Notes under the pieces: generated by a model
The model's database searches: none
What the model was told of the DNA's origin: nothing
What the model saw: the letters and a program-made list of their open reading frames with translations, nothing else
Translations under genes and position numbers: made by a program
Shown here: positions 12,380-56,085 of the stretch, piece after piece
Position numbering within the stretch: position 1 is the stretch's first letter
Layout: every line of letters starts with the position of its first letter
NCBI GenBank assembly: GCA_051418015.1
Contig: JBPRGF010000023.1
Span: forward strand, 172,127 to 236,126
DNA: 64,000 bases
Source: Candidatus Nitrospinota bacterium M3_3B_026
Lineage (GTDB): Bacteria > Nitrospinota_A > UBA7883 > JBPRGF01
Reading direction: 5' to 3'

Positions 12380-12442
12380 GTATCTTGCGGGCCCCGCGCT
12401 TTTTCGTGAATCTTATCACAGAATCATAAAAAACTTCCCTTT

Positions 12443-31431: not shown

Positions 31432-31530
31432 GGCCGCCCGGCGCGCCGCGGAAACCGGGCGGCGTGGAAAGCGAAAAGGAGCTTATATTAAGCTATGTGA
31501 CTATCACCAAACGACGCTGCGGCTTCCGGC

Positions 31531-32676
31531 ATGAATGAACACCACGGACAGAACAACGGCGCCAGGCTGATGGACTCGTCCGGTCTGGACGCGCTCATCG
31601 CCGCCCTTGTCCGTGAGGGCCGCCGGGTCGTGGGGCCGGTGATCCGGGACGGGGCCATACTCCTCGACGAGATCAACGGCGTCGAAGACCTGCCGCGCGG
31701 CGTGTCGGACGAGCAGGACGCCGCATTCTACCGGCTCCGCGAGACCGGTGGGAATACCCTTTTCGGATATAACGCAGGCCCCCAACTCTGGAAAAAGTTT
31801 CTGTTTCCCCCGAGGCTTACTTTGTGGACGGCGAAGCGGAACGGCCAAGGCTTCGAGATCGAGCCGGACGGGGGGGAACCTGAGAAACTCGCCCTCCTCG
31901 GCGTCCGGCCCTGCGATCTGGCGGCGATAAGGATACAGGACAGGGTCTTCGCGGATGGCGAATTCAAGGACCTCTCATATGCGACGCGAAGGCGAAATAT
32001 TTTCGCCATCGCCGTGAACTGCTCCCGCGCCGGGGGGACGTGCTTTTGCGCCTCCATGGGGACGGGACCGAAAGCTTCCGGTGAGTTCGACATCGCGCTC
32101 ACGGAGATAGAAGACGAAGTGGGCCATCGTTTCCTGCTTGAAACAGGCTCGGCCGAAGGCGAAAGAGTTCTCGAAAACACATCCACCACGAAAGCCAGCG
32201 AGAACGACCTCATCGCCGCGAAGGCGATTCTCGAAAAGACCTCCCGGAGCATGGGCAGGAGGCTTGAAACGGAGGGCCTGAAAGAGATTTTGTACGAGTC
32301 CGCCGAAGGCAGGATTTGGGAGGACGCGGCTGAAAGATGCCTCGCCTGCGCTAATTGTACGATGGTGTGCCCCACCTGTTTTTGCTCCACGGTGGAGGAC
32401 ATGACGGATCTTTCCGGCGATTTCACGAGGCGGGAGCGGCGCTGGGACTCGTGCTTCACGCTGGATTTTTCCTACATCCACGGCGGGCCCGTCAGGAGGA
32501 CGCGCGCGGCCCGGTACCGCCACTGGATAACCCATAAGCTAGCGTCGTGGATGGACCAGTTCGGGACGGCCGGGTGCACAGGGTGCGGGCGCTGCATCAC
32601 ATGGTGCCCCGCGGCGATAGACATTACGAAAGAGGCCCGGGCGGCGCGGGACGCGGCGGCCCGGGAGAAAGTATGA
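31531..32676 (+). CDS. NiFe hydrogenase (group 3b-like) beta subunit, AsrA-like Fe-S protein
   Basis: 381 aa with two C-terminal 4Fe-4S motifs (CLACANCTMVCPTCFC, CTGCGRCITWCP). First gene of a beta-gamma-small-large gene order. Confidence 0.7.
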   Translation: MNEHHGQNNGARLMDSSGLDALIAALVREGRRVVGPVIRDGAILLDEINGVEDLPRGVSDEQDAAFYRLRETGGNTLFGYNAGPQLWKKFLFPPRLTLWTAKRNGQGFEIEPDGGEPEKLALLGVRPCDLAAIRIQDRVFADGEFKDLSYATRRRNIFAIAVNCSRAGGTCFCASMGTGPKASGEFDIALTEIEDEVGHRFLLETGSAEGERVLENTSTTKASENDLIAAKAILEKTSRSMGRRLETEGLKEILYESAEGRIWEDAAERCLACANCTMVCPTCFCSTVEDMTDLSGDFTRRERRWDSCFTLDFSYIHGGPVRRTRAARYRHWITHKLASWMDQFGTAGCTGCGRCITWCPAAIDITKEARAARDAAAREKV

Positions 32677-32698
32677 TTTTTCAAGGGGAGACGAGGCG

Positions 32699-33166
32699 AT
32701 GAGACCAAAATCCCTTGCGCCGGTACTGGAGGGGCACCCGTTCCTTGAGGGGATGGAGAAAAAGCACATCGACCTGATCGTGGGATGCGCCAAAAACGTC
32801 CGCTTCAACGCCGGGGACTACATCTTCCGCGAAGGCGAAGCGGCGAACGATTTCTACATCATCCGCCGGGGCCTCGTCTCGGTGGAGCTTTACAGCCCCC
32901 GGAAAGGCCCCATCTCCATCCAGACCCTTCGCGACGGCGACATACTCGGCTGGTCGTGGCTCATACCGCCACACCAGTGGCGGTTCGACGCGCGGGCGGT
33001 GGAGACAACGAGGGCCATAGCGCTGGACGGCGGATGCCTGCGCGGGAAGCTGGAGGACGACCACGGCCTCGGCTACCAGCTGCTGAAAAGATTCTCCCGG
33101 GTCATGGCAAAGACGCTCGAGGGCACGAGGCTCCAGCTGCTGGACCTTTACGGCGAAGGCGCATGA
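32699..33166 (+). CDS. stand-alone cyclic nucleotide-binding domain protein (no DNA-binding domain)
   Basis: 155 aa with a cNMP-binding fold (GDYIFREGEAANDFYIIRRGLVSVEL, GDILGWSWL). GGGGAG RBS. Its stop overlaps the ATG of the next gene (ATGA). Confidence 0.65.
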   Translation: MRPKSLAPVLEGHPFLEGMEKKHIDLIVGCAKNVRFNAGDYIFREGEAANDFYIIRRGLVSVELYSPRKGPISIQTLRDGDILGWSWLIPPHQWRFDARAVETTRAIALDGGCLRGKLEDDHGLGYQLLKRFSRVMAKTLEGTRLQLLDLYGEGA

Positions 33167-34017
33167 CGACGCCCGTTTCCATCAATCCCGGAGCGGACGC
33201 GGCGATCCCCGTTCCCTGGATGGTGACGGCCAGGAGGGAGCAGACGCGCGACGTCTTCACCCTCGAGCTTGCCCCGCCCGCCGGGATGGACGGTCTCCGG
33301 TTCGCGCCGGGCCAGTTCAACATGCTGTACCAGTTCGGCGCGGGCGAGGCGCCGATCTCCATCAGCGGCGACCCAGCGAGGACCGGCGCGCTGGAGCACA
33401 CGATCCGGGCCGTCGGCGGCGTGACAAGGCTTATGGCCAGCCTTAGGGAAGGAGACGCCATCGGCGTCCGGGGCCCATACGGGCGTGGATGGCCGATGCC
33501 TGAGGCGGAGGGGAAAGACGTCGTCATCGCCGCGGGCGGGATCGGGCTGGCCCCGCTGCGCCCGGCGGTTCTTGGCATACTGGCGGAGCGGGAAAAATTT
33601 GGAAGAGTCGTCCTGTTTTACGGCGCGCGATCCGACGAGGACATAGTCTTCGAAGACGACCTGCGGGAATGGCGGTCGAGGTTCGACATGGAGATCGAGG
33701 TGACCGTCGACCGGGGGTCCGGCGGATGGCGCGGACCCGTCGGCGTCGTCACACAGCTTATTCCGCGGGCCGCCTTTGATCCCGCGAAAACGCTGGCCAT
33801 GATATGCGGGCCGGAGGTGATGGCGAAGTTCACCGTGTCGGAGTTTTTAAGGCTCGGCGTTGAGCCGGGGAGGATATACGTCTCCATGGAACGGAGCATG
33901 AAATGCGGAGTCGGCCTTTGCGGGCATTGCCAGATGGGCCCGCTTTTCGTCTGCAAGGACGGGCCGGTTTTCACCTATGACAGCATCCGCCGCCTCATGG
34001 CTCTGCGGGAGATATAG
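33163..34017 (+). CDS. NiFe hydrogenase gamma subunit, AsrB-like FAD/NAD(P)-binding 2Fe-2S oxidoreductase
   Basis: 284 aa. FAD-binding barrel (RDVFTLEL...GQFNMLY), an NAD-binding region (VVIAAGGIGLAPL), and a C-terminal 2Fe-2S Cys cluster (CGVGLCGHCQMGPLFVCKDGPVF). The ORF call at 32785 is a spurious extension. Confidence 0.75.
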   Translation: MTTPVSINPGADAAIPVPWMVTARREQTRDVFTLELAPPAGMDGLRFAPGQFNMLYQFGAGEAPISISGDPARTGALEHTIRAVGGVTRLMASLREGDAIGVRGPYGRGWPMPEAEGKDVVIAAGGIGLAPLRPAVLGILAEREKFGRVVLFYGARSDEDIVFEDDLREWRSRFDMEIEVTVDRGSGGWRGPVGVVTQLIPRAAFDPAKTLAMICGPEVMAKFTVSEFLRLGVEPGRIYVSMERSMKCGVGLCGHCQMGPLFVCKDGPVFTYDSIRRLMALREI

Positions 34018-34782
34018 ATGAAAAAGAAACTGGCCGTCTTCAAGTTCGCCTCATGCGACGGCTGCCAGCTTTCGCTTCTCAACCTGGAGGACGAGCTTCT
34101 GGCCATCGCCGGCGCCATCGACATCGCCTATTTCCCCGAGGCGTCGCGGGAGTACGTCAAGGGGCCTTACGACCTTTCCCTGGTGGAAGGCTCCATAACC
34201 ACCTCCCACGACGCGGAGCGGATCCAGAAGGTGAGGGAAAACTCGAAATTCCTCGTGACCATCGGCGCCTGCGCGACGGCGGGGGGCATCCAGGCGCTCC
34301 GGAATTTTCAGGACGTAAACGAGTTCATATCCGTGGTCTATGCCTCGCCGGAGTATATCAGCGCGCTCGGCGAGTCCACGCCCATCGCCGATCACGTCGC
34401 CGTGGACTTCGAGCTTCGCGGCTGCCCCGTGAACAAAGGGCAGCTGCTGGAGGTCGTAACGGCCTTCATCCACGGGAGAGCGCCAAAAGTCCCGGCCCAC
34501 AGCGTCTGCCTGGACTGCAAGCTGGCGGGGAACGTCTGCGTGATGGTGGCCCGGAGTGAGCCGTGTCTTGGGCCCGTGACCCACACAGGCTGCGGCGCGC
34601 TCTGCCCGGCGTATCATCGCGGCTGCTACGGCTGTTTCGGGCCGATGGAGACGCCGAACACGCGCTCCATGGGCGGGCGGCTGAAGGCGCTGGGGCTTTC
34701 GGGGGAGGACGTCGTCCGCTCTTTCCGGGGCTTCAACGCCTGGGCGGAGGATTTCAGGGAGGCCGGCGGGGAGGATGAGTGA
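34018..34782 (+). CDS. NiFe hydrogenase small (delta) subunit
   Basis: 254 aa. Proximal-cluster Cys pattern [27 protein letters not shown]. Confidence 0.8.
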
Positions 34783-36070
34783 AACCAGGAAGATAAGGGT
34801 GGACTACCTCGCCCGCGTCGAGGGAGAGGGGGCTATGACATTGAAGATAAAGGACGGCGCCGTCTCCGGCGTGGCCCTTGAGATATTCGAGCCGCCACGC
34901 TTTTTCGAGGCTTTTTTGAGGGGGCGGAGATTCCAGGAAGCGCCGGACATCACCGCCCGGATATGCGGCATATGCCCCATCGCCTACCAGATGAGCGCCG
35001 TCCACGCCATGGAGGACGCGCTGGGGGTCGCCGTCGACGGGGCCACGAGGGATCTTCGCAGGCTGATCTACTGCGGCGAGTGGATAGAAAGCCACGCCCT
35101 CCACGTCTACATGCTCCATGCCCCCGATTTCCTCGGGTACGAAAGCGCCATCCACATGGCAAAAGACCACCCGGAAATAGTAAAACGCGGTCTTTTTATA
35201 AAGAAGGCGGGCAACGCCATCGTCTCGCTTCTTGGCGGCAGGGAGGTTCACCCCATAAACGTCCGGGTGGGGGGTTTTTACAGGTTGCCGCGAGCTGGCG
35301 AGCTTTCCGGCCTGGAGGAGACTCTCAAAAGAGCCAGGGACGAGGCCGTGGAAACCGTGAAATGGGCCGCCGCCCTCCCCTTCCCCGAGTTTGAGAGGGA
35401 TTATGTCTTCGTGGCGTTGTCTCATGAAAGAGAGTATCCCTTCAACGAGGGAAGAATCACCTCCACCGGCGGGCTCGACATCCCTGTCAGCGACTACGAA
35501 AAACATTTCGAGGAGGAGCACGCCGCCCATTCCACGGCCCTGCGCTCGAAGATAAAGGGAGGCGGCGCGTACATGACCGGGCCGATGGCGCGGTATAGCA
35601 TCAACTTCGGGAAGCTGCGGCCGATAGCGGTGGAAACGGCGCGGGCGGCGGGCCTTGCGCCGTACATCACGAACCCGTACAAGAGCATAGCCGTCCGCGC
35701 CGTGGAGATTCTCCACGCCATAGACGAGGCGCTGCGGATCATCGGGGACGGAAAGCTTCCCGAAAAGCCGTTCGTGGAGGCGGAGCCCTCCGAGTCCACG
35801 GGATACGGCGCGACGGAGGCGCCGCGGGGGCTTCTCTACCACAGGTACACGCTTGACGAGAGCGGGCTGATAACGAGCGCCAGGATCGTCCCCCCCACGT
35901 CGCAGAACCAGCGGATAATCGAGGAGGACCTTTTCAAGGCCGCCTCCGAAAACCTCCGCCTGCCCGACGATGAGCTTACGTTACGGCTGGAACAGACGAT
36001 AAGGAACTATGACCCGTGCATATCCTGCTCCACGCATTTTCTGAAGCTGAAAATAGAACATGAACGGTAA
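34775..36070 (+). CDS. NiFe hydrogenase large (alpha) subunit
   Basis: N-terminal L1 motif RICGICP. C-terminal L2 motif DPCISCSTH followed by a 10-aa cleavable tail. Confidence 0.9.
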
Positions 36071-36536
36071 GGTCCTCATAGGCGTCGGGTCCGAGGATCG
36101 CGGCGACGACGCCGCAGGGCTCAGGATCGTCCGCGCCCTCAGGGACATGGTTCCCAGGAGCGTCGAGGTGGTGGAGGCGCCGGGCGAGGGAGCGCGTATA
36201 ATGGAGGCTTGGCAGGGTTTTCATTTCACGCGGGTGTTCGACGCCGTCTCCTCCGGCGCGCCGCCGGGGACGATCGTAAAGCTCGACCCGCGTAAGGACC
36301 CCTTTCCCGCGGCCTTTTTTCGCAGTTCCTCCCACACTTTCGGCCTGGCGGAGGCGGTGGAGCTTGCGCGGTCGCTCGGCGCTCTTCCGCCGTCTCTCAT
36401 GATCTACGGGGTGGAGGGGAAGGACTACGGGCTGGGGCGGGGGCTCTCGGCGGAGGTGTCCGCCGCCGTGGATGAGATCGTGGAGATGGTCAAAAAGGAG
36501 ATGCTCTCTTCGCCATCCATGGGAGATGATGGCTAG
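36060..36536 (+). CDS. hydrogenase maturation endopeptidase (HycI/HoxW family)
   Basis: 158 aa ([17 protein letters not shown]). Overlaps the large-subunit stop. Confidence 0.8.
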
Positions 36537-37054
36537 GACTTGGAGAACCGCTCCGACACGGAGTCGAAGCCTATGACCACCTTGTCGCGGCTTTCGAGGG
36601 TGACCGTCCCTTCGAAAGAGTGGCCGAACGTCTCGTCCCCGTCCCTGGTGTCCTTTATGGCCACTTTTATCGCATGCGAGCCGAGGGGCAGGATGAACTT
36701 CTCGTAGACATACGTGGCGCTGTCCTGCCTTATGCCCGATGGGACGATCTGCTTGTCCAGGGCGGTTTCGCCGTCGATCCACACCTTGAGCCGCAGGGGG
36801 ACGCGTTCCCGGCTGCCGCAAACCCTGTCCGCCCGCTGCATGTGCGGGCGTCTCAGCTTGGCCTCCTTTTTGAACTCTTCGAGCTCCTCCTCGTCGCACA
36901 GGCTCCTGCGCTCGGTCACTCTCTTGAACGATATGATGACCCCCCCCACGTCGTCGCTGTAATAGCTGTAGGACGGCGAGTCGGAAAGAAAATACACCAG
37001 CGGCGCGGGGGACAAAAGCAGGATCACGGCCCAGACCGTCAGTCTATCCTTCAT
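36533..37054 (-). CDS. hypothetical secreted protein
   Basis: 173 aa with an N-terminal signal-like helix. Last gene of the minus-strand oxidase operon. Its stop overlaps the protease stop (convergent). Confidence 0.4.
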   Translation of the reverse strand: MKDRLTVWAVILLLSPAPLVYFLSDSPSYSYYSDDVGGVIISFKRVTERRSLCDEEELEEFKKEAKLRRPHMQRADRVCGSRERVPLRLKVWIDGETALDKQIVPSGIRQDSATYVYEKFILPLGSHAIKVAIKDTRDGDETFGHSFEGTVTLESRDKVVIGFDSVSERFSKS

Positions 37055-38730
37055 TTCAGCGCGCCCTCCATGTCGTTGGCGGCGGTCTTTCCGCCGGATG
37101 GTTTTCTGACGATCTCCAGGAACTTCTTTATGTCCGCCACCACTTCCTCGTCCTCAAACCTCGACACCAGCATGACTTTTATCCGCTCCCCCGCGCTCTC
37201 GTCCACTCCGGTGATGTTCGCCGGGTCCGTCGCCTCCTCGATCCGCTCGTTGCCTTCCCTGTAATGGCAGTCCAGCGGCCTGCAGCCCACGACCACGACC
37301 CCCTTCGCGCCGTCCTTGAACGCCGCTCCCACAAGGTCCGGCTCCAGGACGCCGGCGCAGGGGATGACCATCACGGCCGCCGCGGGCTCGCCGGCAAGGC
37401 TTCTCTCGTCGTCCGACAGGACGTTCGAGAGGGTCATGCTCCGCTCGCACATGAAGCAGAGGATGACCGGCTTCTCCCCCTCCGCGGGCGCCATAAGGGA
37501 CTTTATGTCCTCCAGCATCGAATCCCGCGTCATCTCCCCCATGGATATCCCGGACGTGGGGCACGCCGTCACGCAGAACCCGCATCCCTCGCACCGCGCC
37601 GGGAATATTTCCACCTGTGTGTCGTATGGTCTTCCGTCCGTTCTGGGAGTTATGCTCACCGCCTCGAAAGGGCAGACCGGCTGGCAGAGGTTGCATCCTT
37701 TGCATTTTTCAAGGTCTACCAGCGCGAACTGTTTTCGGGCTTTTTTTTTTGCCGCCGCCTTTCGCTTCTCACGCTCCAGCGCCGGCGCGGGGATGAGCCA
37801 TGGCAGGGCCGTGAAAAGCGCGAGGGCCGCGGAGCCGGCGATCCACATCGCGCCGGGGGCGACCCTGAAGGCGTCCATGAAGGGGAACGGGATCAGGTAG
37901 AACCAGTCTATCTCCACTCTTCCTAAAAGCTTCGAAAGGTCCGCGGGTCCCATACTGACGGCCGGTTTCACGAGGGAGAGGCCCAGCAGGCCCGCCAGTA
38001 TGACCAACGCCACCGGCCGCGGCGGGGAGATCAGGGGCCTGGAAAGGCGCATGTAGTGGATCCAGGCCATTATCAACAGGAAACAGGGGATCATGAGATG
38101 CAGGTAGTTGGTCACGAAAAAGAGCACGCTCGTGACCGTCTCGTTGGTCAGGAACGTCCTGGAGACGGGCTCCACGGTGATGGGGAGGGCGTCCAGCAGG
38201 CGGGCGAACTCCACGGCCACCATCTTCCCCTTCTCGTCCCACACCAGCACGTAGCCGGATATCCCCTCGAACCAGACCCAGAACAGGATCACCGAGCCGG
38301 AGACCCACGCCACCCATCTAGCGCGCCTGAACCGGTCGGAGAAAAAGACCTGGGCCACGTGCAGAAGGATGGATATGGCCAGCCCGTCGGCGGCGTAGCG
38401 GTGCATGGAGCGCATTATGCCGCCGTAATATTTCTGCTCCTTGGTGATGTATTGTACGGACTCGTAGGCCCCTTCCACGCTCATATCGTAAAAGAGGAAC
38501 AGGTATGACCCGGTGATGATGAGGATCCAGAACAGGAACAGGGATATGGCCCCGAGGAAGTACATGGGGTTCAGCCTCGGCGGGAAGATCTTGTTCAGCT
38601 GCTCCTGGATGAAGACCAGCGTCGTGTTGCCGGGCCGCAATATCCAGGGGATAAGCTCATTCTGGTACGTCTTGGAGGCCCTTTTCAGGGACCTTTCGAG
38701 TTCTCTCTCCTTGTCCGTGTCTTGTCTCAT
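37051..38730 (-). CDS. fusion protein: di-haem cytochrome b6-like membrane domain + 2x[4Fe-4S] ferredoxin + MvhD-like (FlpD) domain
   Basis: Cytochrome b His pairs 14 residues apart (MHRYAADGLAISILLH and YLHLMIPCFLLIMAWIH) and a b6-like GYVLVWD motif. Two CxxCxxCxxxCP motifs (CKGCNLCQPVCP, CEGCGFCVTACP). MvhD signature GCRPLDCHYREGN. Confidence 0.7.
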   Translation of the reverse strand: MRQDTDKERELERSLKRASKTYQNELIPWILRPGNTTLVFIQEQLNKIFPPRLNPMYFLGAISLFLFWILIITGSYLFLFYDMSVEGAYESVQYITKEQKYYGGIMRSMHRYAADGLAISILLHVAQVFFSDRFRRARWVAWVSGSVILFWVWFEGISGYVLVWDEKGKMVAVEFARLLDALPITVEPVSRTFLTNETVTSVLFFVTNYLHLMIPCFLLIMAWIHYMRLSRPLISPPRPVALVILAGLLGLSLVKPAVSMGPADLSKLLGRVEIDWFYLIPFPFMDAFRVAPGAMWIAGSAALALFTALPWLIPAPALEREKRKAAAKKKARKQFALVDLEKCKGCNLCQPVCPFEAVSITPRTDGRPYDTQVEIFPARCEGCGFCVTACPTSGISMGEMTRDSMLEDIKSLMAPAEGEKPVILCFMCERSMTLSNVLSDDERSLAGEPAAAVMVIPCAGVLEPDLVGAAFKDGAKGVVVVGCRPLDCHYREGNERIEEATDPANITGVDESAGERIKVMLVSRFEDEEVVADIKKFLEIVRKPSGGKTAANDMEGALK

Positions 38731-38779: not shown

Positions 38780-39595
38780 TTAGGAGGCTTGCGCGCCCCT
38801 CGCGCGGCCTGAGTGGCGGGAGAAAAGATGGGCTATCCTGCCCCGCAACAGGTAAACGACAGTGGCCACTATCAGGATGTACTGCAAAATGACTGCGAAG
38901 ACAAACGTGTAATCGACCTTGTAGGTCTTGGTGACGGGATCGTAGTTCGAGCAGTAGATCAACAGCTTTGACAGGGCGCTGGTCATCCTCCCCTGCGCCG
39001 TGCGGCCGGCGAGGACATCCCGGACGGCGTTCTCCACTTCCGCGGGATCGTAGTCCACTCCGTAGAAATGCCTGGCGACGGAGCCGTCGGGCGCGACGAG
39101 GGTGAGGCGGTTCAGGTGATCGAGGCTGTCCGCCTTCTTCTCGTAGGAAAAGCCGAGGTCCGACACCATCATCCCCAGCGTCTCGTCGTCGGTGGTCGTG
39201 AATATCCATCTTTCGAAATTGTCCGCGAAAGCCGCGCCGTACTCCCTGAGCCTGGCGGGGTTGTCGTTATGGTTGTCGATGCTTATCGACAGCGTCATCA
39301 GCTTCCCGGCGACGGCCGGGTCGATGGCCGCCAACATGTTTTTAAGGCTCTCGTTTATGAGCCAGCAAGGGCCGTGGCAGTCCACGTACATGAAGCTTAC
39401 GAGGACGGGCCTGCCTTTCAGGCTGTGGAACGGGAGGTAGTCCCCGTCCTGCGTAATAAGCCTGTAGTTTCGCACCTTCCGCCCCACCGCCAGCTCCGAG
39501 CGCTCCAGGACCGAAGCCCCAGGCGCGGCCGGCGCCGTGGCGGAAAGCGGCGAAACGATCAGAACAACCGCTAATACCAGCGCACGTTTCAGCAT
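38780..39595 (-). CDS. SCO1/SenC family copper chaperone (thioredoxin-like)
   Basis: 271 aa. Signal peptide, CHGPC (CxxxC) motif, and a C-terminal TM segment. Confidence 0.7.
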   Translation of the reverse strand: MLKRALVLAVVLIVSPLSATAPAAPGASVLERSELAVGRKVRNYRLITQDGDYLPFHSLKGRPVLVSFMYVDCHGPCWLINESLKNMLAAIDPAVAGKLMTLSISIDNHNDNPARLREYGAAFADNFERWIFTTTDDETLGMMVSDLGFSYEKKADSLDHLNRLTLVAPDGSVARHFYGVDYDPAEVENAVRDVLAGRTAQGRMTSALSKLLIYCSNYDPVTKTYKVDYTFVFAVILQYILIVATVVYLLRGRIAHLFSRHSGRARGAQAS

Positions 39596-39685
39596 GGGGT
39601 AAAGGCCGCTCCCCTTAAAAACCGCCGCGGCTCCGGGCCGGTGGTGTTACCCCCGCCGGAGCCGCGGCTCCCCTCTCTAAGCGCG

Positions 39686-39814
39686 TCAACCCACCTTCCA
39701 TACTCCTACAAGATACTTCCAGTTGAGGAAGTAGAAGGCCACGAACGTAATGAAAAATATGATGATGATGGCGAACGAGCCTTTCGGCCTGTGTTCGTCT
39801 CTCTCTTCAACCAT
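39686..39814 (-). CDS. small single-TM membrane peptide (42 aa), candidate oxidase accessory subunit
   Basis: Not in the ORF track. ATG is preceded by AGGAGG at -5. MVEERDEHRPKGSFAIIIIFFITFVAFYFLNWKYLVGVWKVG. Lies between SCO1 and subunit I. Confidence 0.45.
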   Translation of the reverse strand: MVEERDEHRPKGSFAIIIIFFITFVAFYFLNWKYLVGVWKVG

Positions 39815-39844
39815 GATGACACCTCCTATGCTAAAAAGGCCCTG

Positions 39845-41365
39845 TCAAGCCTCGATCTTTTTGCCGACTAGCAGCGTCCCGACGGCCACCAACACATACA
39901 TGGCGCCGCCCAGCACCGCTATGACGCCGCCGATGCCCACGATCGCCATCGAAAGGTCCACGATGGGCCCGAAGTTGACGGCGAAGGGCGAATCCGCCCC
40001 GGTCATGTCCCAGCTTCTCCTGGGCACGCCGAACACCCCGGCGAACATCATGAAGATGCACAGCAGGTACATCCCTATGCCATAGACGTAGGGCTGGGCC
40101 TTGGCTATGCCCTTGAAGGCCACCTCGCGCCTGAATATGAGAGGCAGCACGTAGTAGGTCACGCCCATGAAGGCCATCGTCGTGCCCGCCACCACTGTGG
40201 CGTGGAAATGGCCGGGGACGCGGATGGTGTTGTGGACGACTATGTTCAGCTGCTCCGTGCCGTATATGACGCCGGAGATGCCTCCCAGGAAGCCGAAGCC
40301 CACCATCGAGAACCACAGCGAGGACCATCCCGGATCGCCCCACGGGGCCTTCTTGAGCCACTCGAAAAGACCGGCGGTGTAGCCCTTCTTCCTGAGCGCC
40401 ACCTCCGTCGCCGCCGGCACGGAGAAGGCGTGGATCATCGAGGCCAGCACAGCAAGGTGCATGAAGTACCCCGTGTTCCACGACTTGTGCGCCGCCGAGA
40501 GGCCCGGGTCGACCAGCAGGTGGTGCTCCGAGGCTATCAGGATGAACAAGATGTAAAGGCCGAAAGCGATGCGGCTGACCTTCTCGTTGATCGGCGTGGA
40601 GCCGACCGTCAATGTCCCCAGAAGGTACCAGACAGCCACCATGGCGCAGACGTTTATCTGCTGCGACGAGTGGCCGAAGCCCCAGAACAGCAGCCTGTAG
40701 ACCTCCGCGTCCATCATGGGGATGAGCCCCAGGGCCCACAGCCACGTGGGGATAAAAGTGGCCGCTCCATGCGCCAGGGTCAGTATGGCGATGATCGCCG
40801 CCGCCATGGCCCCGAAGGTCACAAGCGGGACGGAGCCTTCGTAGGTCTTGTCCCTCTTGGCCACCGCCAGCGTGGCGAAAAAGACCACGCAACCCACGAT
40901 GGCGCCCACGGCGAAGAGTATCACGCCGAGGTAGTACCAATGGTCGGCCTTCAAGGGGATGTACGAGGTGAACATCACGTCCGCCTTGCCGAGCAGTATC
41001 TCCACCGCCGCTATTGCGGCTCCGCCCAGCATCAGCAGATACGCCAGCCACCCGGCCCATGGCGCGGCCAGCCTGGTGTTCAGCAACACCGCGGACGCGA
41101 AGTAGAGCACAGCTATCTCGAAGAAGATGATCCACGCCACCAGCATGGCGATCCCGTGCAGGGTCAGCAGCCGGTAGAACCACTCGTCATTGAGTATGTG
41201 CACGGCCTGCCACCTGGTGAGGACCATGAACAGCCCGATTATCCCCCCCACGAGGAGGAACACGATCGAAGTCACCGCGTTGACCTGTATCAGGGTCTGC
41301 GCGGGAAGGTGTATCTTGAAACCGGTTGTCGGACAGGTTCTGAACCGTCCTTCTTGCTCCGCCAT
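39845..41365 (-). CDS. heme-copper oxidoreductase superfamily subunit I (12+ TM), possibly a nitric oxide reductase
   Basis: All six canonical His are present: helix II (LTLHGIAM), helix VI (GFGHSSQQ), helix VII (SEHH) and helix X (GHFHATV). There is no Tyr at H+4 in helix VI. Confidence 0.85.
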   Translation of the reverse strand: MAEQEGRFRTCPTTGFKIHLPAQTLIQVNAVTSIVFLLVGGIIGLFMVLTRWQAVHILNDEWFYRLLTLHGIAMLVAWIIFFEIAVLYFASAVLLNTRLAAPWAGWLAYLLMLGGAAIAAVEILLGKADVMFTSYIPLKADHWYYLGVILFAVGAIVGCVVFFATLAVAKRDKTYEGSVPLVTFGAMAAAIIAILTLAHGAATFIPTWLWALGLIPMMDAEVYRLLFWGFGHSSQQINVCAMVAVWYLLGTLTVGSTPINEKVSRIAFGLYILFILIASEHHLLVDPGLSAAHKSWNTGYFMHLAVLASMIHAFSVPAATEVALRKKGYTAGLFEWLKKAPWGDPGWSSLWFSMVGFGFLGGISGVIYGTEQLNIVVHNTIRVPGHFHATVVAGTTMAFMGVTYYVLPLIFRREVAFKGIAKAQPYVYGIGMYLLCIFMMFAGVFGVPRRSWDMTGADSPFAVNFGPIVDLSMAIVGIGGVIAVLGGAMYVLVAVGTLLVGKKIEA

Positions 41366-41378
41366 AAGCCCCCCCTAC

Positions 41379-41906
41379 CTATTCAACGTATATCTTGCCG
41401 AACATCAGGTGATGCCCGATGCCGCAGAACTCGTTGCAGATTATGGTGTACTCCCCGGCTTTCGTCGGCGTGATGGTCAGCACCGAGTCCCACCCGGGGA
41501 CGGCCTGGAAGTTCATGTTCAAAGGATAGATCGAAAAACCGTGGTTCACGTCCACGGAGGACAGATGCAGCCTGTAGGTCTGGCCCGCCTTGAGCTTCAG
41601 GATGGGGTCCCACGACCACTGGGCGGCTCTCATGAAGGCGTCGCTGTTGGGAGGAGGCTCCACGACCGGGATTCCTTCCTCCTCGCCCACCTTGTACTTC
41701 TCTATGAACTTATCGGTCAGGTTGTAGAAATCGTCGGTGGTGAGCTTGTAGTACTCCTGCGGCGGGTTCTGCTCCCCGATTATATGCCAGGCCGGCATAA
41801 TAAGTGTTATCAATATGCACCATATCAGCGCGATGGTGATCCATATCTTCTCCTCCGCATGGAGAGGACTGCGCCACCAGTGCCGCGCGGGCGAATGAAT
41901 GCTCAT
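41379..41906 (-). CDS. heme-copper oxidase subunit II with CuA site (cupredoxin), no cytochrome c domain
   Basis: N-terminal TM helices. CuA motif VNHGF...ICNEFCGIGHHLM (H-x35-CxExCGxxHxxM). Confidence 0.8.
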   Translation of the reverse strand: MSIHSPARHWWRSPLHAEEKIWITIALIWCILITLIMPAWHIIGEQNPPQEYYKLTTDDFYNLTDKFIEKYKVGEEEGIPVVEPPPNSDAFMRAAQWSWDPILKLKAGQTYRLHLSSVDVNHGFSIYPLNMNFQAVPGWDSVLTITPTKAGEYTIICNEFCGIGHHLMFGKIYVE

Positions 41907-41928
41907 GTCTTCCCCCCTTATTTAGTTT

Positions 41929-42132
41929 TCACCCTTTGACCAAAGGAGACGTGGCGACGCTGCCCAACTCCACAAGTCCCCAGACGGTGTACAACAGCAG
42001 GAAAATCGCCGCCCCGAGGAAAAACAGCAGATACACGTCATCGAAAAACACCTGCCAGAAAGATACCGGCTCCTCTTCCCGCGCCTCTTCTTGTTCCATA
42101 TGACTTCCCCCCTTTAATCTAAGGTTCGCCAA
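41929..42132 (-). CDS. small membrane protein (first gene of oxidase operon)
   Basis: 67 aa with one TM helix. Possibly starts at the internal MEQEE. Confidence 0.35.
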   Translation of the reverse strand: MANLRLKGGSHMEQEEAREEEPVSFWQVFFDDVYLLFFLGAAIFLLLYTVWGLVELGSVATSPLVKG

Positions 42133-42263
42133 AGATGAGGATCACGCCTGTAGCGCCGGCTCCGTCGCCGGGTACCGCGCCGCGCGCCGCGATCACGCTC
42201 AAACCGGCGCTCATGCGCCACGCTCTTACCGCGTTTTTATATCGGCAACCATCGGTAAAAGCT

Positions 42264-42277
42264 ATGATAAAAGTCAT
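42264..42277. promoter_or_regulatory. FNR/Dnr(Crp-Fnr family)-type palindrome
   Basis: ATGATaaaagTCAT, versus the consensus TTGAT-N4-ATCAA. Lies in the divergent intergenic region, about 130 nt upstream of the oxidase operon. Confidence 0.35.
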
Positions 42278-42529
42278 AAACAACAGACGCATTTCATTAC
42301 CATCCGCGACGCTCTGGCTATATGCCTGCGGCGCCCCGTAAGCGCCGGGACGCTCTGGCGAACACCCTGGAAAACCGTCGGCGCCAAGGAAAGCAAAACG
42401 CTTCGCCCGAAGAAAATAATTTCGCGCGGAGGGCGCAATTTTTTTCCAGGCCACCGCGGAATCTTCAGCAACCGCCGAGAATCCAAAAAGTTACATCATG
42501 AAAAATTCCGCAAGATACTTTTCAAATGT

Positions 42530-42543
42530 ATGACTTTAATCAT
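42530..42543. promoter_or_regulatory. FNR/Dnr-type palindrome upstream of nirS
   Basis: ATGACtttaATCAT, centred 77 nt upstream of the nirS ATG. This is consistent with a -41.5 class II site. Confidence 0.45.
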
Positions 42544-42613
42544 ATCGTCCGGCCGGAGTCCCGTTTATAAACGGTATTAAGCAGCGAATAAGACTTTTTT
42601 TTGGGGGGGACAC

Positions 42614-44218
42614 ATGAAAAGATATTTCTTTCTGTTCGCGCTGAGTCTTGCGTTAATCACCACGTTTTACACGCCACAAGCCCTGGCGGAGCCCGAAGCG
42701 CCACCGTTGAACCAGGATGAATGGCACATCGCCAAGAGCATCTACTTCAACAGGTGCGCCGGCTGCCACGGCACCCTGAGGAAAGGCGCCACGGGGCCCA
42801 ACCTCCTTCCGGAGAAGACCCTCGAATTCGGCACGGAGACCATCAGGAGCTTCATTATGGAGGGGACCGAGGGGGGCATGCCGGCCTTCGGCAGGGGCGG
42901 AATCCTGACGCCGGAGGAGGTCGACATCATGGCCAGGTTCGTCCAGCATGACCCCGTGGCCCCGCCGGAGATGTCGCTGGCGGACATGATGGAAAGCTGG
43001 AACCTTGTCGTGCCGCCGAACAAGAGGCCGAAAAAGCCGGCCCACAACAGGAACTGGCAGAACTTCTTCGGCGTGGTCCTGCGCGACGCTGGCCAGGTGG
43101 CCATCATCGACGGCGACACCAAGGAGAAGGTATCCACCGTCAACACAGGCTTCGCGGTGCACATCCTGCGCGCCTCGGCGTCGGGCCGGTATATCTTCTC
43201 AATCGGCCGCGACGGCAAGGCGACCATGATCGACACCTGGATGAAAAAGCCGTCCATCGTGGCCGAGGTCAAGACCTGCTCCGAGGCCCGCTCCATCGAC
43301 ACCAGCAAATACGAAGGCTACGAGGACAAGTACGCCGTGGTGGGCTGCTACTGGCCGCCGCACTTCGTCGTCCTGAACGGCGCCACGCTGGAGCCGATGA
43401 AAATCGTCAGCACCAGAAGCTACACCTACGACTCGTATGAGTACCATCCCGAGCCCCGCGTGGCGGCGATCGTCTCCTCGCACTACAGCCCGGAGTGGGT
43501 CCTGAACGTCAAGGAGACGGGCTACGTCTGGCTGGTCGATTACTCCGATATCGAGAACATGAAGATCACCCAGATCGAGTCTGAGCGCTTCCTTCACGAC
43601 GGGGGCTGGGACGCCAAGCACCGCTACTTCATGGCGGCGGCGAACATGCGCGACACCATGGTTGTCATAGACACCAAGACCAGGAAGAAGGTGGCGCAGT
43701 TCAAGGTCGGCACCAAGCCGCACCCGGGCCGCGGCGGAAACTGGGTCGACCCGAAATACGGCCCCGTCTCGGGCACGGTGCACCTCGGCGAGGGACTGCT
43801 CTCGGTGTGGGGGTCCGACCCTGAGGGTCACCCGGAACACGCCTGGAAGGTCGTGAGAAGCATCGAGCTTCCCGGCGGCGCCGGCAGCCTGTTCATGAAG
43901 ACCCACCCCAAGAGCAAACACATGTGGATGGACTTCACCCTGAACCCGGACCCGAAGAACCATCGCAGCGTATGCGTGATGGACATCAACAAGCCTAACA
44001 CCAAGGACCTGAACTGTTTCCAGGTGACCGACCACGGACGCGTCGTGCACATGGAGTACAACAAGAAAGGGGACGAGGTGTGGCTGAGCGTCTGGGACAA
44101 GGAGGGCGAGCTGGTCATCTACGACGACAGGACCCTGAAGGTCAAGAAGAGGATCAAGGGTCTTCGCACTCCCACGGGCAAGTTCAACGTGTACAACACG
44201 CAGCACGACATCTACTGA
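42614..44218 (+). CDS. nirS: cytochrome cd1 nitrite reductase
   Basis: 534 aa. Signal peptide, haem c site IYFNRCAGCHGTLRKGATG, a d1 beta-propeller, and a C-terminus FNVYNTQHDIY near-identical to Pseudomonas NirS. Confidence 0.92.
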   Translation: MKRYFFLFALSLALITTFYTPQALAEPEAPPLNQDEWHIAKSIYFNRCAGCHGTLRKGATGPNLLPEKTLEFGTETIRSFIMEGTEGGMPAFGRGGILTPEEVDIMARFVQHDPVAPPEMSLADMMESWNLVVPPNKRPKKPAHNRNWQNFFGVVLRDAGQVAIIDGDTKEKVSTVNTGFAVHILRASASGRYIFSIGRDGKATMIDTWMKKPSIVAEVKTCSEARSIDTSKYEGYEDKYAVVGCYWPPHFVVLNGATLEPMKIVSTRSYTYDSYEYHPEPRVAAIVSSHYSPEWVLNVKETGYVWLVDYSDIENMKITQIESERFLHDGGWDAKHRYFMAAANMRDTMVVIDTKTRKKVAQFKVGTKPHPGRGGNWVDPKYGPVSGTVHLGEGLLSVWGSDPEGHPEHAWKVVRSIELPGGAGSLFMKTHPKSKHMWMDFTLNPDPKNHRSVCVMDINKPNTKDLNCFQVTDHGRVVHMEYNKKGDEVWLSVWDKEGELVIYDDRTLKVKKRIKGLRTPTGKFNVYNTQHDIY

Positions 44219-44301
44219 TGGCAAGCGCGCGGTAACACCGTTGAGGGCGCCCCGGCGCGGCGGCAAGCCCCCGGGGCGCCCCGAATTAAAAGAGGCGCAT
44301 T

Positions 44302-46017
44302 ATGACCTCGCCATCCATGACGCGGATCGCGGCTCTCATCCTTGCGCCGGTGTTTATCTCCGGCCCCGGATCGGCCTTCGCCGAAACTTCCGCGAAGAAC
44401 CTCTATGGGGAGCATTGCGCGAGCTGCCATCACCCGAAAAGGCTGGGGCTCACGGCCCCTCCCTTGATACCGGGTCTTTTTTCAAGAAGCGCCAAGGGCC
44501 GCCTGCCCCAAATAATCCGCGACGGGCTTCCGGCCACGCGGATGCCGGCTTTCGGCGGCGAGCTTTCTGATGAACAGATAAAACTTCTGGCGGAACTCAT
44601 ACAAGAACCGGCGAAGGAGTTGGACTGGACTTTTGAGGACATACGGTCTAGCAAGATTGACATTGACGAGCCTGGAAAAGTTTTAAGAGCCGACATCGAG
44701 AATATAACGCTGGTCATGGAGCGCGGGACGCAGAGCCTCGTCGTTCTGGACGGCGCGGATTTCAGCGAGCTCGGCAGGTTCCACGTGGGCGCCGTCCACG
44801 GCGGGCCGAAGTTTTCGTATTCCCTGGATCGTGTGTACGCCCTTGCCAGGGACGGGATACTGACAAGCTATAATCTGAGAGCCCTTTCCGCCGAGACCAG
44901 GCTCAAGGCGGGGATAAACTCCCGCTCCGTCGCCGTATCAAGCGGCGACAAAACGGTGGCCGTGGCCAATTACCTTCCGTCCAACGTCGTCCTTTTCGAC
45001 AAAGACCTGGAGCCCGTCGGCGAGATACCACTGCCCGGAAAGGCGGGGGGGTTCTACTCGCTGCCGTCCCTGAAAAGCTTCGCCCTGTCGTTCAGGGAGA
45101 TTCCGGAACTCTGGATAATCGGCGAGAGCCCGCCTTTCGAGATCGAAAAACGAAAGCTGCCCGAGGCTTTCCAGGATTTTTCGGTCAGTCCCGTCAAGCC
45201 TTACATAATCGGGACGAAACGGGGCGGCGATCATATGTACATCTACGACTACATGGAGGACAGGATACTCAAAAAGATCCCCACCAGCGGCCTGCCGCAC
45301 CTGGCCTCGGCCGCGTTCTACATACACAAGGGCGAGCTTTTCGCCGGGGTCAACCACATAAAAAAGCCAGCGGCCACGATCATATCCCTCGACCGGCTCG
45401 ACAAGGTGGCCGAGATACCCCTTCCCGGCGCGGGCTTTTTCGTCCGGACGCATCATGCCACGCCGTACCTGTGGATAGATACCGAGACGGAGCGGATCGC
45501 CCTCGTGAACAAGGACGACTTCTCCGATATCCGCTACCTGACGCCCCACGAGGGGCGCAAGGCGATGCACGTGGAATTCACCAAGGAGGGCGCCCGCGCC
45601 CTGGTCACCATCCCGGGCAGGGGCGGCGAGGTGGTCATATACGACGCGAAGACCCTGGAAAAGATCAACGCCATCCCCTTCGAACGGCCCGTCGGCAAGT
45701 ACAACGCCACGAACAAGACGTACCCGGGCAGATCGCTCGCGGCGCGGAAGGCGGATGGGGCCAGCGCGGGCAAACAGGTCTTCGACAAATACTGCATGGG
45801 GTGCCACCACCAGGTCTACGAGGCGTTCGGGCCATCCTTCACCCGGATAGCCAGGGAGAGGGGCGCGGCAAGGATAAAGTTTCACATCCTGTCGCCCGAG
45901 GCCAGCGCAAAGACCCTGGGGTACAAGAGAAACTCCATGCCCAGGATAAAACTTTCGCCGGAGCAGCTGGAGGCGATAGTCAGATACATAAAAAGCTTCG
46001 GCCAGACGGGGGGATAA
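44302..46017 (+). CDS. nirN: cd1-family beta-propeller protein with N- and C-terminal c-type cytochrome domains (NirN-like fused to a NirC-like cytochrome c)
   Basis: 571 aa. Signal peptide. CASCHH at the N-terminus, a d1-type propeller, and a second CMGCHH motif in a C-terminal domain of about 90 aa. Confidence 0.65.
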   Translation: MTSPSMTRIAALILAPVFISGPGSAFAETSAKNLYGEHCASCHHPKRLGLTAPPLIPGLFSRSAKGRLPQIIRDGLPATRMPAFGGELSDEQIKLLAELIQEPAKELDWTFEDIRSSKIDIDEPGKVLRADIENITLVMERGTQSLVVLDGADFSELGRFHVGAVHGGPKFSYSLDRVYALARDGILTSYNLRALSAETRLKAGINSRSVAVSSGDKTVAVANYLPSNVVLFDKDLEPVGEIPLPGKAGGFYSLPSLKSFALSFREIPELWIIGESPPFEIEKRKLPEAFQDFSVSPVKPYIIGTKRGGDHMYIYDYMEDRILKKIPTSGLPHLASAAFYIHKGELFAGVNHIKKPAATIISLDRLDKVAEIPLPGAGFFVRTHHATPYLWIDTETERIALVNKDDFSDIRYLTPHEGRKAMHVEFTKEGARALVTIPGRGGEVVIYDAKTLEKINAIPFERPVGKYNATNKTYPGRSLAARKADGASAGKQVFDKYCMGCHHQVYEAFGPSFTRIARERGAARIKFHILSPEASAKTLGYKRNSMPRIKLSPEQLEAIVRYIKSFGQTGG

Positions 46018-46018
46018 G

Positions 46019-47188
46019 ATGTTCAGACTAAGCCATTATTACAACATAGCTGAAGGGCGCGCGGGCCGCGGCGGAAAGTCCCATGGCGCCAGATGCGGCG
46101 GGAAGCCGATCGTGATATGGAACCTCACGAGGACATGCAACCTCTCGTGCGTCCATTGCTACGCCTCGTCGAAGGCGCGCGGCTACAGCAGGGAGCTTTC
46201 CACGGAGCAGGCCGTCTCGGTCATGGACGGCCTTTACGCCGCCGGGGTGAGAACGGTCATCCTCTCCGGCGGCGAGCCGATGATCCGCGGGGATATCCTT
46301 AACCTTGCCGCAAGCGCTAAAGAAAAAGGCTTCATGACCTCCATCTCCACCAACGGCACACTTATAGGAGAGAAGGAGGCGGACAGGATAGCCGCCGCGG
46401 GGCTGGACTACGTCGGCGTGAGCCTGGACGGCATCGGCGAGACCCACGACCGCGTCCGGGGCGTCGAAGGCTCTTTCGAGCAGGCCGTGGCGGGGCTTTT
46501 CAGGCTGGCGGAGCGGGGGGTAAAATGCGGCGTGCGTTTCACGCTGACGAGGATGAACATGAACGACCTGCCGGCGATCTTCGAGTTCGCCGAGAAGAAC
46601 GGGATAGGGAAAATATATTTATCACACCTCGTCTACTCCGGCAGGGGTGGCGTCAATCGGGGGGAGGACGTCACCCCGGCTGAGACGAGGGAAGCGATGG
46701 ATTACGTTTTCAGCAAGGCGCGGGAGTACACGCGGCGCGGGCGCGGGCCGCAGATCGTCACCGGGAACAACGACGCCGACGCCGCGTACCTGCTCCTGCG
46801 TCTCATGGAGGGGAGCCCGGAGGGGGCCGAGCGGCTCCTGCCGGTGATGGAGAGGTTCGGCGGGGCCAACGCCGGGGTGGGGGTCGCGAACATAGACCCC
46901 ACCGGTGAGGTCCACCCCGATCCTCTCATGTCCTCCGTGAACCTGGGGAACGTCACCGAAAAATCTTTCGGTGAGATATGGCATGACTCCGAAAACCCCG
47001 TCCTGAAAAGGCTCCGGGCGAGGCCCCGCGTCTTCAACGGCCGGTGCGGACGGTGCGCCTGGCTGAAGGTGTGCGGCGGCTCCTGCCGCGTCCGGGCTCT
47101 GCGGATGACGGGGGACATGTGGGGTCACGACCCCGCCTGCTACCTTACCGACGAGGAAACCCAGGTTGAGCTTGCGCAGGCTGTATAG
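46019..47188 (+). CDS. nirJ: haem d1 biosynthesis radical SAM protein
   Basis: 389 aa. CNLSCVHCY radical SAM cluster plus a C-terminal SPASM-like Cys cluster (CGRCAWLKVCGGSC). Lies in the nir context. Confidence 0.8.
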   Translation: MFRLSHYYNIAEGRAGRGGKSHGARCGGKPIVIWNLTRTCNLSCVHCYASSKARGYSRELSTEQAVSVMDGLYAAGVRTVILSGGEPMIRGDILNLAASAKEKGFMTSISTNGTLIGEKEADRIAAAGLDYVGVSLDGIGETHDRVRGVEGSFEQAVAGLFRLAERGVKCGVRFTLTRMNMNDLPAIFEFAEKNGIGKIYLSHLVYSGRGGVNRGEDVTPAETREAMDYVFSKAREYTRRGRGPQIVTGNNDADAAYLLLRLMEGSPEGAERLLPVMERFGGANAGVGVANIDPTGEVHPDPLMSSVNLGNVTEKSFGEIWHDSENPVLKRLRARPRVFNGRCGRCAWLKVCGGSCRVRALRMTGDMWGHDPACYLTDEETQVELAQAV

Positions 47189-55890: not shown

Positions 55891-56085
55891 CCGGATCAAC
55901 CGGAAAAGCTTGTTGAGTGAAACATGACGCCGCTTTCGCGCCTCCGCCGATATGAAAGCTTTGGCTTTTTGAATCAGTATTTTACAAGGGAGTCGCGATG
56001 TTGTCAACGAAAGCGCGGCTCTTTTTTCAAAGCGGCGGGCCTCCGCCTGCTTGACAATTTCCAGGCGCGAGGGGCGGTGGTATAA

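Follow-up and report, generated by a model that had tools for sequence, protein, structure and literature searches.

We analysed a 64,000-nucleotide stretch of the genome of Candidatus Nitrospinota bacterium M3_3B_026 (contig JBPRGF010000023.1, positions 172,127 to 236,126; referred to as the window), which carries a six-gene [NiFe]-hydrogenase operon with a stand-alone cyclic nucleotide-binding (CNB) domain protein encoded between the two diaphorase subunits, beta (HyhB) and gamma (HyhG). This gene is the default architecture of a large clade of bacterial group 3b hydrogenases and not an insertion, and the window operon is an ordinary representative of that clade. The best overall explanation, to which we assign a probability of roughly 0.6, is that the CNB protein is a conserved accessory component that is made with the 3b enzyme, docks on HyhB and is not a receptor for cyclic nucleoside monophosphates (cNMPs).

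The operon encodes a group 3b-type hydrogenase

An earlier reading of the nucleotide sequence, called the original prediction below, described six genes on the forward strand in the order beta, CNB, gamma, small, large and protease. Every open reading frame (ORF) was found at the coordinates claimed for it, and the Pfam and NCBIfam matches agree with the proposed identities (Table 1). The large subunit contains both Ni-Fe ligand motifs, RICGIC (C64 and C67) and DPCISCSTH (C415, C418 and H421), whose columns are invariant in the large-subunit alignment (A1). Among the NCBIfam models it scores best with ShyA (3.7e-84) and HydA (3e-71), as against 1.4e-40 for VhuA and 2.6e-40 for FrhA; all of these scores lie under the archaeal equivalog cut-offs, which is what a relative from bacteria should show. 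Its closest matches in the PDB are the cytosolic hydrogenase of Thermococcus kodakarensis (5yxy) and sulfhydrogenase I (SHI) of Pyrococcus furiosus (9nez), both at ~224 bits, followed by weaker matches to Mvh (175 bits), the NAD-reducing enzyme 5xf9 (146 bits) and Frh (135 bits). The beta subunit matches ShyB (2.7e-47), HydB (1.2e-42) and AsrA (8.6e-34), and gamma matches PRK08345 (1.9e-66) and ShyC (6.7e-58).

Because the large subunit scores best with sulfhydrogenase alpha and has AsrA/AsrB-like partners, these sequence affinities support the assignment of the operon to the cytosolic, NAD(P)-linked [NiFe]-hydrogenases of bacterial group 3b (Hyh-type, sulfhydrogenase-like). The 3b type that had been predicted is thus supported by the models and structures nearest to the large subunit and by the subunits encoded alongside it; the large subunit does not fall outside group 3 and is closest to 3b enzymes. 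Published work places six-gene operons of the same type in Frankia, Rhodococcus equi and 'Methylocapsa acidophilus' in group 3b.

The CNB gene is conserved in sequence and position

A genome scan with one genome per species, using an alignment of six large subunits as the query and tabulating gene order by tblastn, gave 80 loci with a large subunit at least 60% identical to that of the window. The relevant interval lay on the contig in 78 of them, and in 76 of these 78 informative loci, from more than 15 phyla, beta and gamma directly flank the CNB gene (one of the 76 loses beta at the contig edge). The loci belong to Acidobacteriota, Ignavibacteria/Bacteroidota, Zixibacteria, Planctomycetota/Brocadia, Chloroflexota, Binatia, Nitrospinota, Alpha-, Gamma- and Deltaproteobacteria, Bipolaricaulia, Trueperaceae and Acidimicrobiia, among others. 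The exceptions to this order are found in an Anaerolineae metagenome-assembled genome (MAG; L055) and in Zixibacteria, where one operon is rearranged (L069 and L001). The original prediction had taken the gene for an unusual insertion, a view that these counts overturn and that is also at odds with published notes of the gene in Frankia, Rhodococcus equi and a Methylocapsa-type methanotroph; conservation of the ORF across related 3b operons, for which a synteny check had been proposed, was observed together with tight packing. The predicted CNB ORF overlaps the start of gamma in ~54 and the stop of beta in ~43 of 75 loci, counts that rest on a heuristic choice of start sites.

On plasmids of Paraburkholderia and Rhodococcus, annotated operons consist of the same six genes in the same order. 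Fifteen plasmid or linear-replicon records encode a large subunit more than 50% identical, and the CNB gene is part of the operon in 11 of them; the other four are from Streptomyces and have a CNB homologue 10-18 kb away, outside the operon. Homologues of the CNB protein number more than 2000, with a length of ~153 aa. Identity is 60-68% between phyla and 59-85% for the best 120, of which those with a taxon label represent several phyla. An identical protein is already recorded from a 'Candidatus Nitrospinota bacterium' MAG.

We compared the subunits across 58 complete operons (57 loci and the window). Ranked by mean pairwise identity, they are small (71%), large (66%), gamma (57%), beta (56%), CNB (52%) and protease (41%), so that by this measure the CNB protein is about as conserved as beta and gamma and much more so than the protease. 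Its distances co-vary with those of gamma, small and large at r values of 0.55-0.58, within the range otherwise seen between subunits.

Two sets of loci deserve a separate description. The Zixibacteria genome CP070766.1 contains beta-CNB-gamma and, behind gamma, 43 residues left over from the small subunit (L001, 4844-7460); elsewhere it has gamma-small-large-protease without beta or CNB (L069). This looks like a duplicated and rearranged 3b operon; the remnant and the presence of the L069 genes in the same genome rule out L001 as an independent beta-CNB-gamma module. A contig labelled 'Candidatus Bathyarchaeia archaeon' (CAZLHM010000029.1) carries a bacterial-type beta-CNB-gamma-small-large operon with a large subunit 65% identical to that of the window; either an archaeon acquired the operon by horizontal transfer or the contig was binned wrongly.

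CNB domains fused to HyhB

A profile search over 1.84 billion representatives revealed a 542-aa protein, P0140, in which beta and CNB are joined, and this fusion was then used as a query. The resulting clade of 540-546 aa proteins, drawn from JGI, ENA and Logan assemblies, comprises 11 clusters at 90% identity, and its members share 57-76% identity with P0140; another beta-CNB fusion that was found, P0281, is more distant. The CNB domain is attached at the C-terminus of beta. On three independent contigs from different assemblers (L093, L096 and L097) the fusion gene is followed, in this order, by a second, diverged free CNB gene (~150 aa), gamma, small and large; the free copy in L093 has GYCW...C instead of the GWSW...W motif described below.

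Since the fusion has persisted through much divergence, a Rosetta-stone argument places the CNB domain on HyhB, and the fused sequences point to a physical attachment between the two. Because this lineage encodes two CNB domains per beta, a CNB dimer is suggested as well. We infer an arrangement in which the CNB protein would most likely dock on HyhB, the FeS subunit of the diaphorase half, would probably act as a dimer held by its long C-terminal helix, like the sensor domains of the CRP family, and would tune the activation, activity or stability of the diaphorase side.

Several related proteins fall outside this set. The 720-aa P0282 was not counted as a fusion, its source being a long-read contig full of frameshifts. 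At L095 (5372-9437) a beta-CNB fusion and gamma directly follow a gene for a 515-aa Pyr_redox_2 flavoprotein, in a long-read assembly where errors are possible; no hydrogenase genes were found within 7 kb of the fusion-gamma pair, and from this gene content the beta-CNB-gamma module may serve another catalytic partner. Tandem proteins with two or three CNB domains carry the same or a closely related G-W-S motif, namely double-repeat proteins among P0122-P0131 and the triple-repeat P0159 with a related GWSA/GWST variant. The 2.9-kb contig of P0122, the one double-repeat contig examined, has no hydrogenase gene beside it.

The nucleotide pocket has lost its canonical contacts

The AlphaFold2 (AF2) model of the CNB protein (pLDDT 87.3, pTM 0.81) shows a CRP-like beta-barrel followed by a 30-residue C-terminal helix (122-152), the dimerisation-type element of CRP/FNR proteins. 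The top Foldseek matches are 3mdp, GlxR and CRP of Mycobacterium tuberculosis, and domains of the cyclic nucleotide-dependent protein kinases PKG and PKA are also matched. PF00027 (54.8 bits, cut-off 27.5) is the sole Pfam domain in the 155 aa, with no helix-turn-helix (HTH) or output domain identified by Pfam.

In canonical CNB domains a Glu contacts the ribose 2'-OH of the nucleotide and an Arg contacts the cyclic phosphate. The corresponding cassette in this family reads G84-W85-S86-W87-L-x-P-P91-Y-x-W94-[H/R/Q]95-F96-D-A-R-A, hereafter the GWSW type. Among 80 family members G84 is present in all 80, W85 in 70, S86 in 77, W87 in 78, P91 in 79, W94 in 68 and F96 in 67, and position 95 is variable. 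In HMMER alignments to the CNB-A and CNB-B domains of PKG, in which the cassettes have equal length, W85 lines up with the canonical Glu and W94 with the canonical Arg; the Gly-Glu...Arg-(Ser/Thr)-Ala phosphate-binding cassette is not kept. As a control within the window, the cNMP-HDOD protein keeps the canonical GE...RTA pattern (GEIAFISKNPRTATV).

Given that both the Glu and the Arg are replaced by conserved Trp residues, the CNB protein is probably not a receptor for cyclic AMP (cAMP) or cyclic GMP (cGMP). The nucleotide pocket is instead remodelled to a Trp-rich site, and the cassette suggests that the protein may bind another ligand, a pyridine nucleotide or nucleoside being the obvious candidate, or none. 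CNB folds with altered cassettes that bind other ligands or none include the trypanosomal PKA regulatory subunits, CooA and DNR, and the cyclic nucleotide-binding homology (CNBH) domains. The proposal of a cAMP/cGMP-sensing regulatory subunit in the original prediction therefore survives in part: sensing is disfavoured by the exchange of both contacts, while a component associated with the enzyme is probable. An FeS or redox-Cys site was also considered, as C30, C113 and C118 occur in most members, and was rejected as a family-wide feature: the window protein has Leu118, the Rhodococcus proteins have none of these residues and the fused lineage lacks C30 and C113.

Comparison with characterised systems

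A stand-alone CNB protein, HoxI, is a subunit of the soluble NAD+-reducing hydrogenase of Cupriavidus necator H16 (group 3d, HoxHYFUI2), where it is present as a dimer on the diaphorase module and is easily dissociated, being lost at high salt and alkaline pH; its presumed ligand is NADP, a pyridine nucleotide, and not a cNMP. Like HoxI (167 aa), the window protein (155 aa) is a stand-alone CNB fold whose gene lies within the operon of a cytosolic [NiFe] hydrogenase linked to pyridine nucleotides. In contrast, the HoxI gene follows the protease gene whereas the window gene lies between the diaphorase genes; the partner of HoxI is the Nuo-like, FMN-containing HoxFU whereas that of the window protein is the AsrAB-like HyhBG with FAD; and HoxI retains the Glu of the GE motif ('GELGF') whereas the window family has GWSW. 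By analogy, the window protein is best read as a non-orthologous counterpart that resembles HoxI in size, fold, genomic logic and, probably, role.

The closest solved fold is Gmet_1532 (PDB 3mdp), a stand-alone CNB-like protein of unknown function (Foldseek E 5.8e-12, target-normalised TM-score 0.87, profile E 1.9e-13), which shares the pattern G-x-S-x-L-I-x-P-Y...ARA and likewise has neither the canonical Glu nor the Arg. The CRP/FNR regulators GlxR, M. tuberculosis CRP and DNR have a sensor-domain fold like that of the CNB protein and an HTH domain that the CNB protein lacks. No hydrogenase-associated chain was among the PDB matches of the CNB protein.

The 3b operon is usually written hyhBGSL and the enzymes are described as having four subunits. 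This holds for the archaeal sulfhydrogenases: SHI and SHII of P. furiosus and the T. kodakarensis cytosolic hydrogenase (3b, alpha-beta-gamma-delta) have four homologous structural subunits, which are the best NCBIfam and PDB matches for all four of the window's, although their identity to the window is far below that of the bacterial operons. Among the bacterial loci sampled here, operons of the five-component type are in the majority. For Frankia (Francci3_4500-4495) it is stated explicitly that a CNB-domain gene separates the diaphorase genes, a CNB gene is listed in the 3b operon of Rhodococcus equi 103S (PMC13332983), and in the 3b operon of 'Methylocapsa acidophilus' 29 it is called HoxI (PMC12319191); these operons share the gene order of the window, which differs in phylum (Nitrospinota). 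The plasmid operon of Rhodococcus sp. DK17 is 38-61% identical to the window subunit by subunit, with 53% for the large subunit. CNB proteins of actinobacteria have diverged much further (~38%) and do not carry the conserved Cys residues.

Weighing the explanations

The notion that the protein is a genuine cAMP or cGMP receptor, placing H2 metabolism under cyclic-nucleotide control and fed for example by the CHASE2 cyclase, appears the least probable of those considered. It draws on the significant PF00027 match and the CNB fold, and on the class III cyclase and the canonical cNMP-HDOD protein encoded within the same window, but it has to accommodate the swap of the Glu and Arg contacts for conserved Trp beside a position that varies between H, R and Q, in a genome whose cNMP-HDOD protein retains GE...RTA. 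The cyclase and HDOD genes lie 15 kb and 19 kb away in unrelated neighbourhoods, and the CNB gene stays with the hydrogenase across phyla irrespective of cyclase or HDOD genes. A link of the two genes to the operon was rejected as they are distant and unlinked, a statement on the window, since cyclase and HDOD genes themselves were not searched for at the related loci. What stands of the proposed cNMP signalling layer over H2 metabolism is the existence of these genes; their distance of 15-20 kb and the way in which CNB follows the hydrogenase across more than 15 phyla regardless speak against the layer itself.

Databases annotate the protein as a CRP/FNR-family regulator, and it goes by 'small transcriptional regulator' in the Frankia paper; both labels would fit a free regulator without HTH that pairs through its C-helix with full-length CRP/FNR-type regulators or other proteins and controls the expression of hydrogenase or hypoxia genes. 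The solitary Streptomyces paralogues with the GWSW motif, found among genes for universal stress proteins (USP), CBS-BON, globin and GAF proteins, and the fact that some 3b operons function without CNB would agree with such a role. However, the protein has no DNA-binding domain, a regulator gene would not usually keep a fixed site between two diaphorase genes, in frames that overlap theirs, its conservation equals that of structural subunits, and it is covalently fused to HyhB in a diverged, persistent lineage; we regard a free regulator as rather improbable. We also consider it unlikely that the protein serves in assembly or maturation, binding HyhB/HyhG for a time (for instance while FeS or FAD is loaded or subunits dock) but missing from the finished enzyme. 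Its gene does lie in the operon beside the subunits concerned, the enzyme can exist without it, and HoxI-like proteins are so easily lost on purification that their absence from purified enzymes could go unnoticed. Nevertheless, a permanent fusion to HyhB suits a resident domain better than a released chaperone, and the conservation of CNB lies far above that of the maturation protease. To our knowledge, no chaperone role has been described for the CNB fold.

We therefore favour an accessory component that is made with the 3b enzyme and docks on HyhB, against which a number of observations have to be set. The support for a CNB-hydrogenase complex, drawn from the fused sequences, is indirect, and an AF2 monomer model of the fusion P0273 (pTM 0.64) has a linker with pLDDT below 50 and no defined beta-CNB interface. 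There are 3b operons without a CNB gene, those of Mycobacterium smegmatis Hyd3, the four Streptomyces replicons and the Anaerolineae MAG L055, and therefore the CNB protein is not required for catalysis. The archaeal 3b enzymes of Pyrococcus and Thermococcus reportedly also have no CNB gene. The Streptomyces GWSW-type paralogues stand alone in hypoxia-type islands, so that the fold can work away from the operon, which would fit a diffusible regulator equally well. Orthology to HoxI was rejected, as a direct BLASTP against hoxI of pHG1 gave a weak similarity of 30% over 73 residues (pairwise E 9e-7); pHG1 was not reported when a plasmid collection was searched by tblastn with CNB at E 1e-3. Finally, the Hyh/Hyd3 operon of Mycobacterium smegmatis, MSMEG_3931-3927, shares the enzyme class and the order beta, gamma, small, large, protease with the window and differs by the absent CNB gene, its gene numbers being consecutive (PMC2799521).

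The Streptomyces islands themselves contain single-domain CNB paralogues (L009, L010 and L011, 13900-14420), are rich in USP, CBS-BON, globin, GAF and hemerythrin genes and resemble hypoxia or dormancy regulons; in one of the four Streptomyces records with a homologue outside the operon, USP, CBS-BON and hemerythrin-ATPase genes accompany that homologue in an island of the hypoxia type.

A more specific version of the accessory component is a resident dimeric fifth subunit on HyhB, which would gate activation or electron flow through a non-cNMP ligand (NADPH/NADP+ or a nucleoside) held in the Trp-lined pocket. We put this forward as a tentative possibility.

Operon layout and genomic surroundings

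The coordinates of the operon, of the fusions and of the other features are collected in Table 1. The ATGA overlap behind the translational coupling predicted for CNB and gamma was seen in the nucleotide sequence at 33163-33166 (ATG at 33163-33165, TGA at 33164-33166). Gamma and small abut (0 nt), small and large overlap by 8 nt, and large and protease by 11 nt. Inside the operon, a promoter and terminator scan gave no signal exceeding the shuffled background. A perfect inverted repeat, AGCTTA-TAT-TAAGCT, is located at 31480-31494, 37-51 nt 5' of the beta start codon in the sole sizeable intergenic gap preceding the operon, and could, judging by its symmetry and position, be an operator or part of a promoter.

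Table 1. Positions of the operon genes, the beta-CNB fusions and the neighbouring features (window coordinates, except for the fusions, which are numbered within their own loci)
Feature	Position	Strand	Details
beta (HyhB/HydB-like, AsrA-like)	31531-32676	+	381 aa; two [4Fe-4S] motifs; diaphorase half; Fer4_22 E 4.9e-31
beta-CNB spacer	32677-32698	+	22 nt; Shine-Dalgarno-like GGGGAG/GAGG 5' of the CNB start codon, read from the sequence
CNB protein, stand-alone, GWSW type	32699-33166	+	155 aa; PF00027 E 9.2e-15
gamma (HyhG/HydG-like, AsrB-like)	33163-34017	+	284 aa from ATG at 33163; FAD/NAD(P)-binding and [2Fe-2S]; NAD_binding_1 8.6e-15, DHODB_Fe-S_bind 4.4e-11
[NiFe]-hydrogenase small subunit (delta)	34018-34782	+	254 aa; Oxidored_q6 2.6e-24, ShyD 1.4e-52
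[NiFe]-hydrogenase large subunit (alpha)	34775-36070	+	431 aa; NiFeSe_Hases; ShyA 3.7e-84
Hydrogenase maturation endopeptidase	36060-36536	+	158 aa; HycI 3.9e-12, TIGR00072 3.5e-29
beta-CNB fusion and second free CNB	L093 7001-9184; L096 6001-8181; L097 694-2851		metagenomic lineage
cNMP-HDOD protein	11015-12379	-	canonical phosphate-binding cassette; 19 kb from operon
DHH/DHHA1 phosphoesterase	12443-13903	-	adjoins cNMP-HDOD gene (region 11015-13903)
173-aa ORF	36533-37054	-	no Pfam matches; precedes cytochrome b-MvhD fusion
Cytochrome b-ferredoxin-MvhD/FlpD fusion	37051-38730	-	559 aa; N-terminal PF00033, two [4Fe-4S] ferredoxin motifs, C-terminal PF02662
SCO1/SenC	38780-39595	-	
COX1-like heme-copper oxidase or NO-reductase subunit	39845-41365	-	
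Three cytochrome cd1 (NirS/NirN/NirF-like) genes	42614-44218, 44302-46017, 47166-48338	+	
Radical-SAM gene	46019-47188	+	
Response-regulator-HD-GYP-type protein	48489-49592		after heme d1-type cluster
CHASE2 adenylate/guanylate (class III) cyclase	51356-53596	-	746 aa; 15 kb from operon
ORF	53642-54811	-	no Pfam matches; upstream of CHASE2 cyclase
FecR-domain protein	54808-56007	-	upstream of CHASE2 cyclase

The operon is flanked upstream by folD, xseAB and ispA, and downstream by the cytochrome b-ferredoxin-MvhD fusion, SCO1, COX1-like and cytochrome cd1-type genes. Of the flanking genes searched for (ispA, xseA and the downstream genes), none adjoined 3b operons at the related loci. The fusion gene is convergent with the hydrogenase operon and abuts it, and its combination of a membrane cytochrome b with an MvhD-like part is an unusual architecture; it was ruled out as a component of the system since it was not found beside other 3b operons. 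The region 38780-48338 forms a respiratory and heme d1-type cluster. Further away, the cNMP-HDOD protein and the DHH/DHHA1 phosphoesterase may make up a nucleotide second-messenger pair of their own, with no relation to the hydrogenase.

Implications for group 3b hydrogenases

Group 3b hydrogenases are among the most widespread hydrogenases of environmental bacteria, and their physiology and regulation have been deduced from enzymes without a CNB gene, Pyrococcus SHI/SHII and M. smegmatis Hyh. Three papers already mention the CNB gene in passing, and the component itself is uncharacterised. The four-subunit description as hyhBGSL is incomplete, because the commonest bacterial form sampled here encodes a conserved, co-translated fifth component that is fused to HyhB in one lineage. 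If the CNB protein is a ligand-gated modulator, it would account for cellular control over a reversible NAD(P)H/H2 valve and would add a new class of ligand to the CNB fold. Should it prove to be a resident subunit that gates the enzyme in response to a non-cNMP ligand, the majority of bacterial 3b hydrogenases would consist of five components under allosteric control, and the GWSW clade, including its tandem and Streptomyces stand-alone forms, would be a CNB subfamily with a new ligand specificity.

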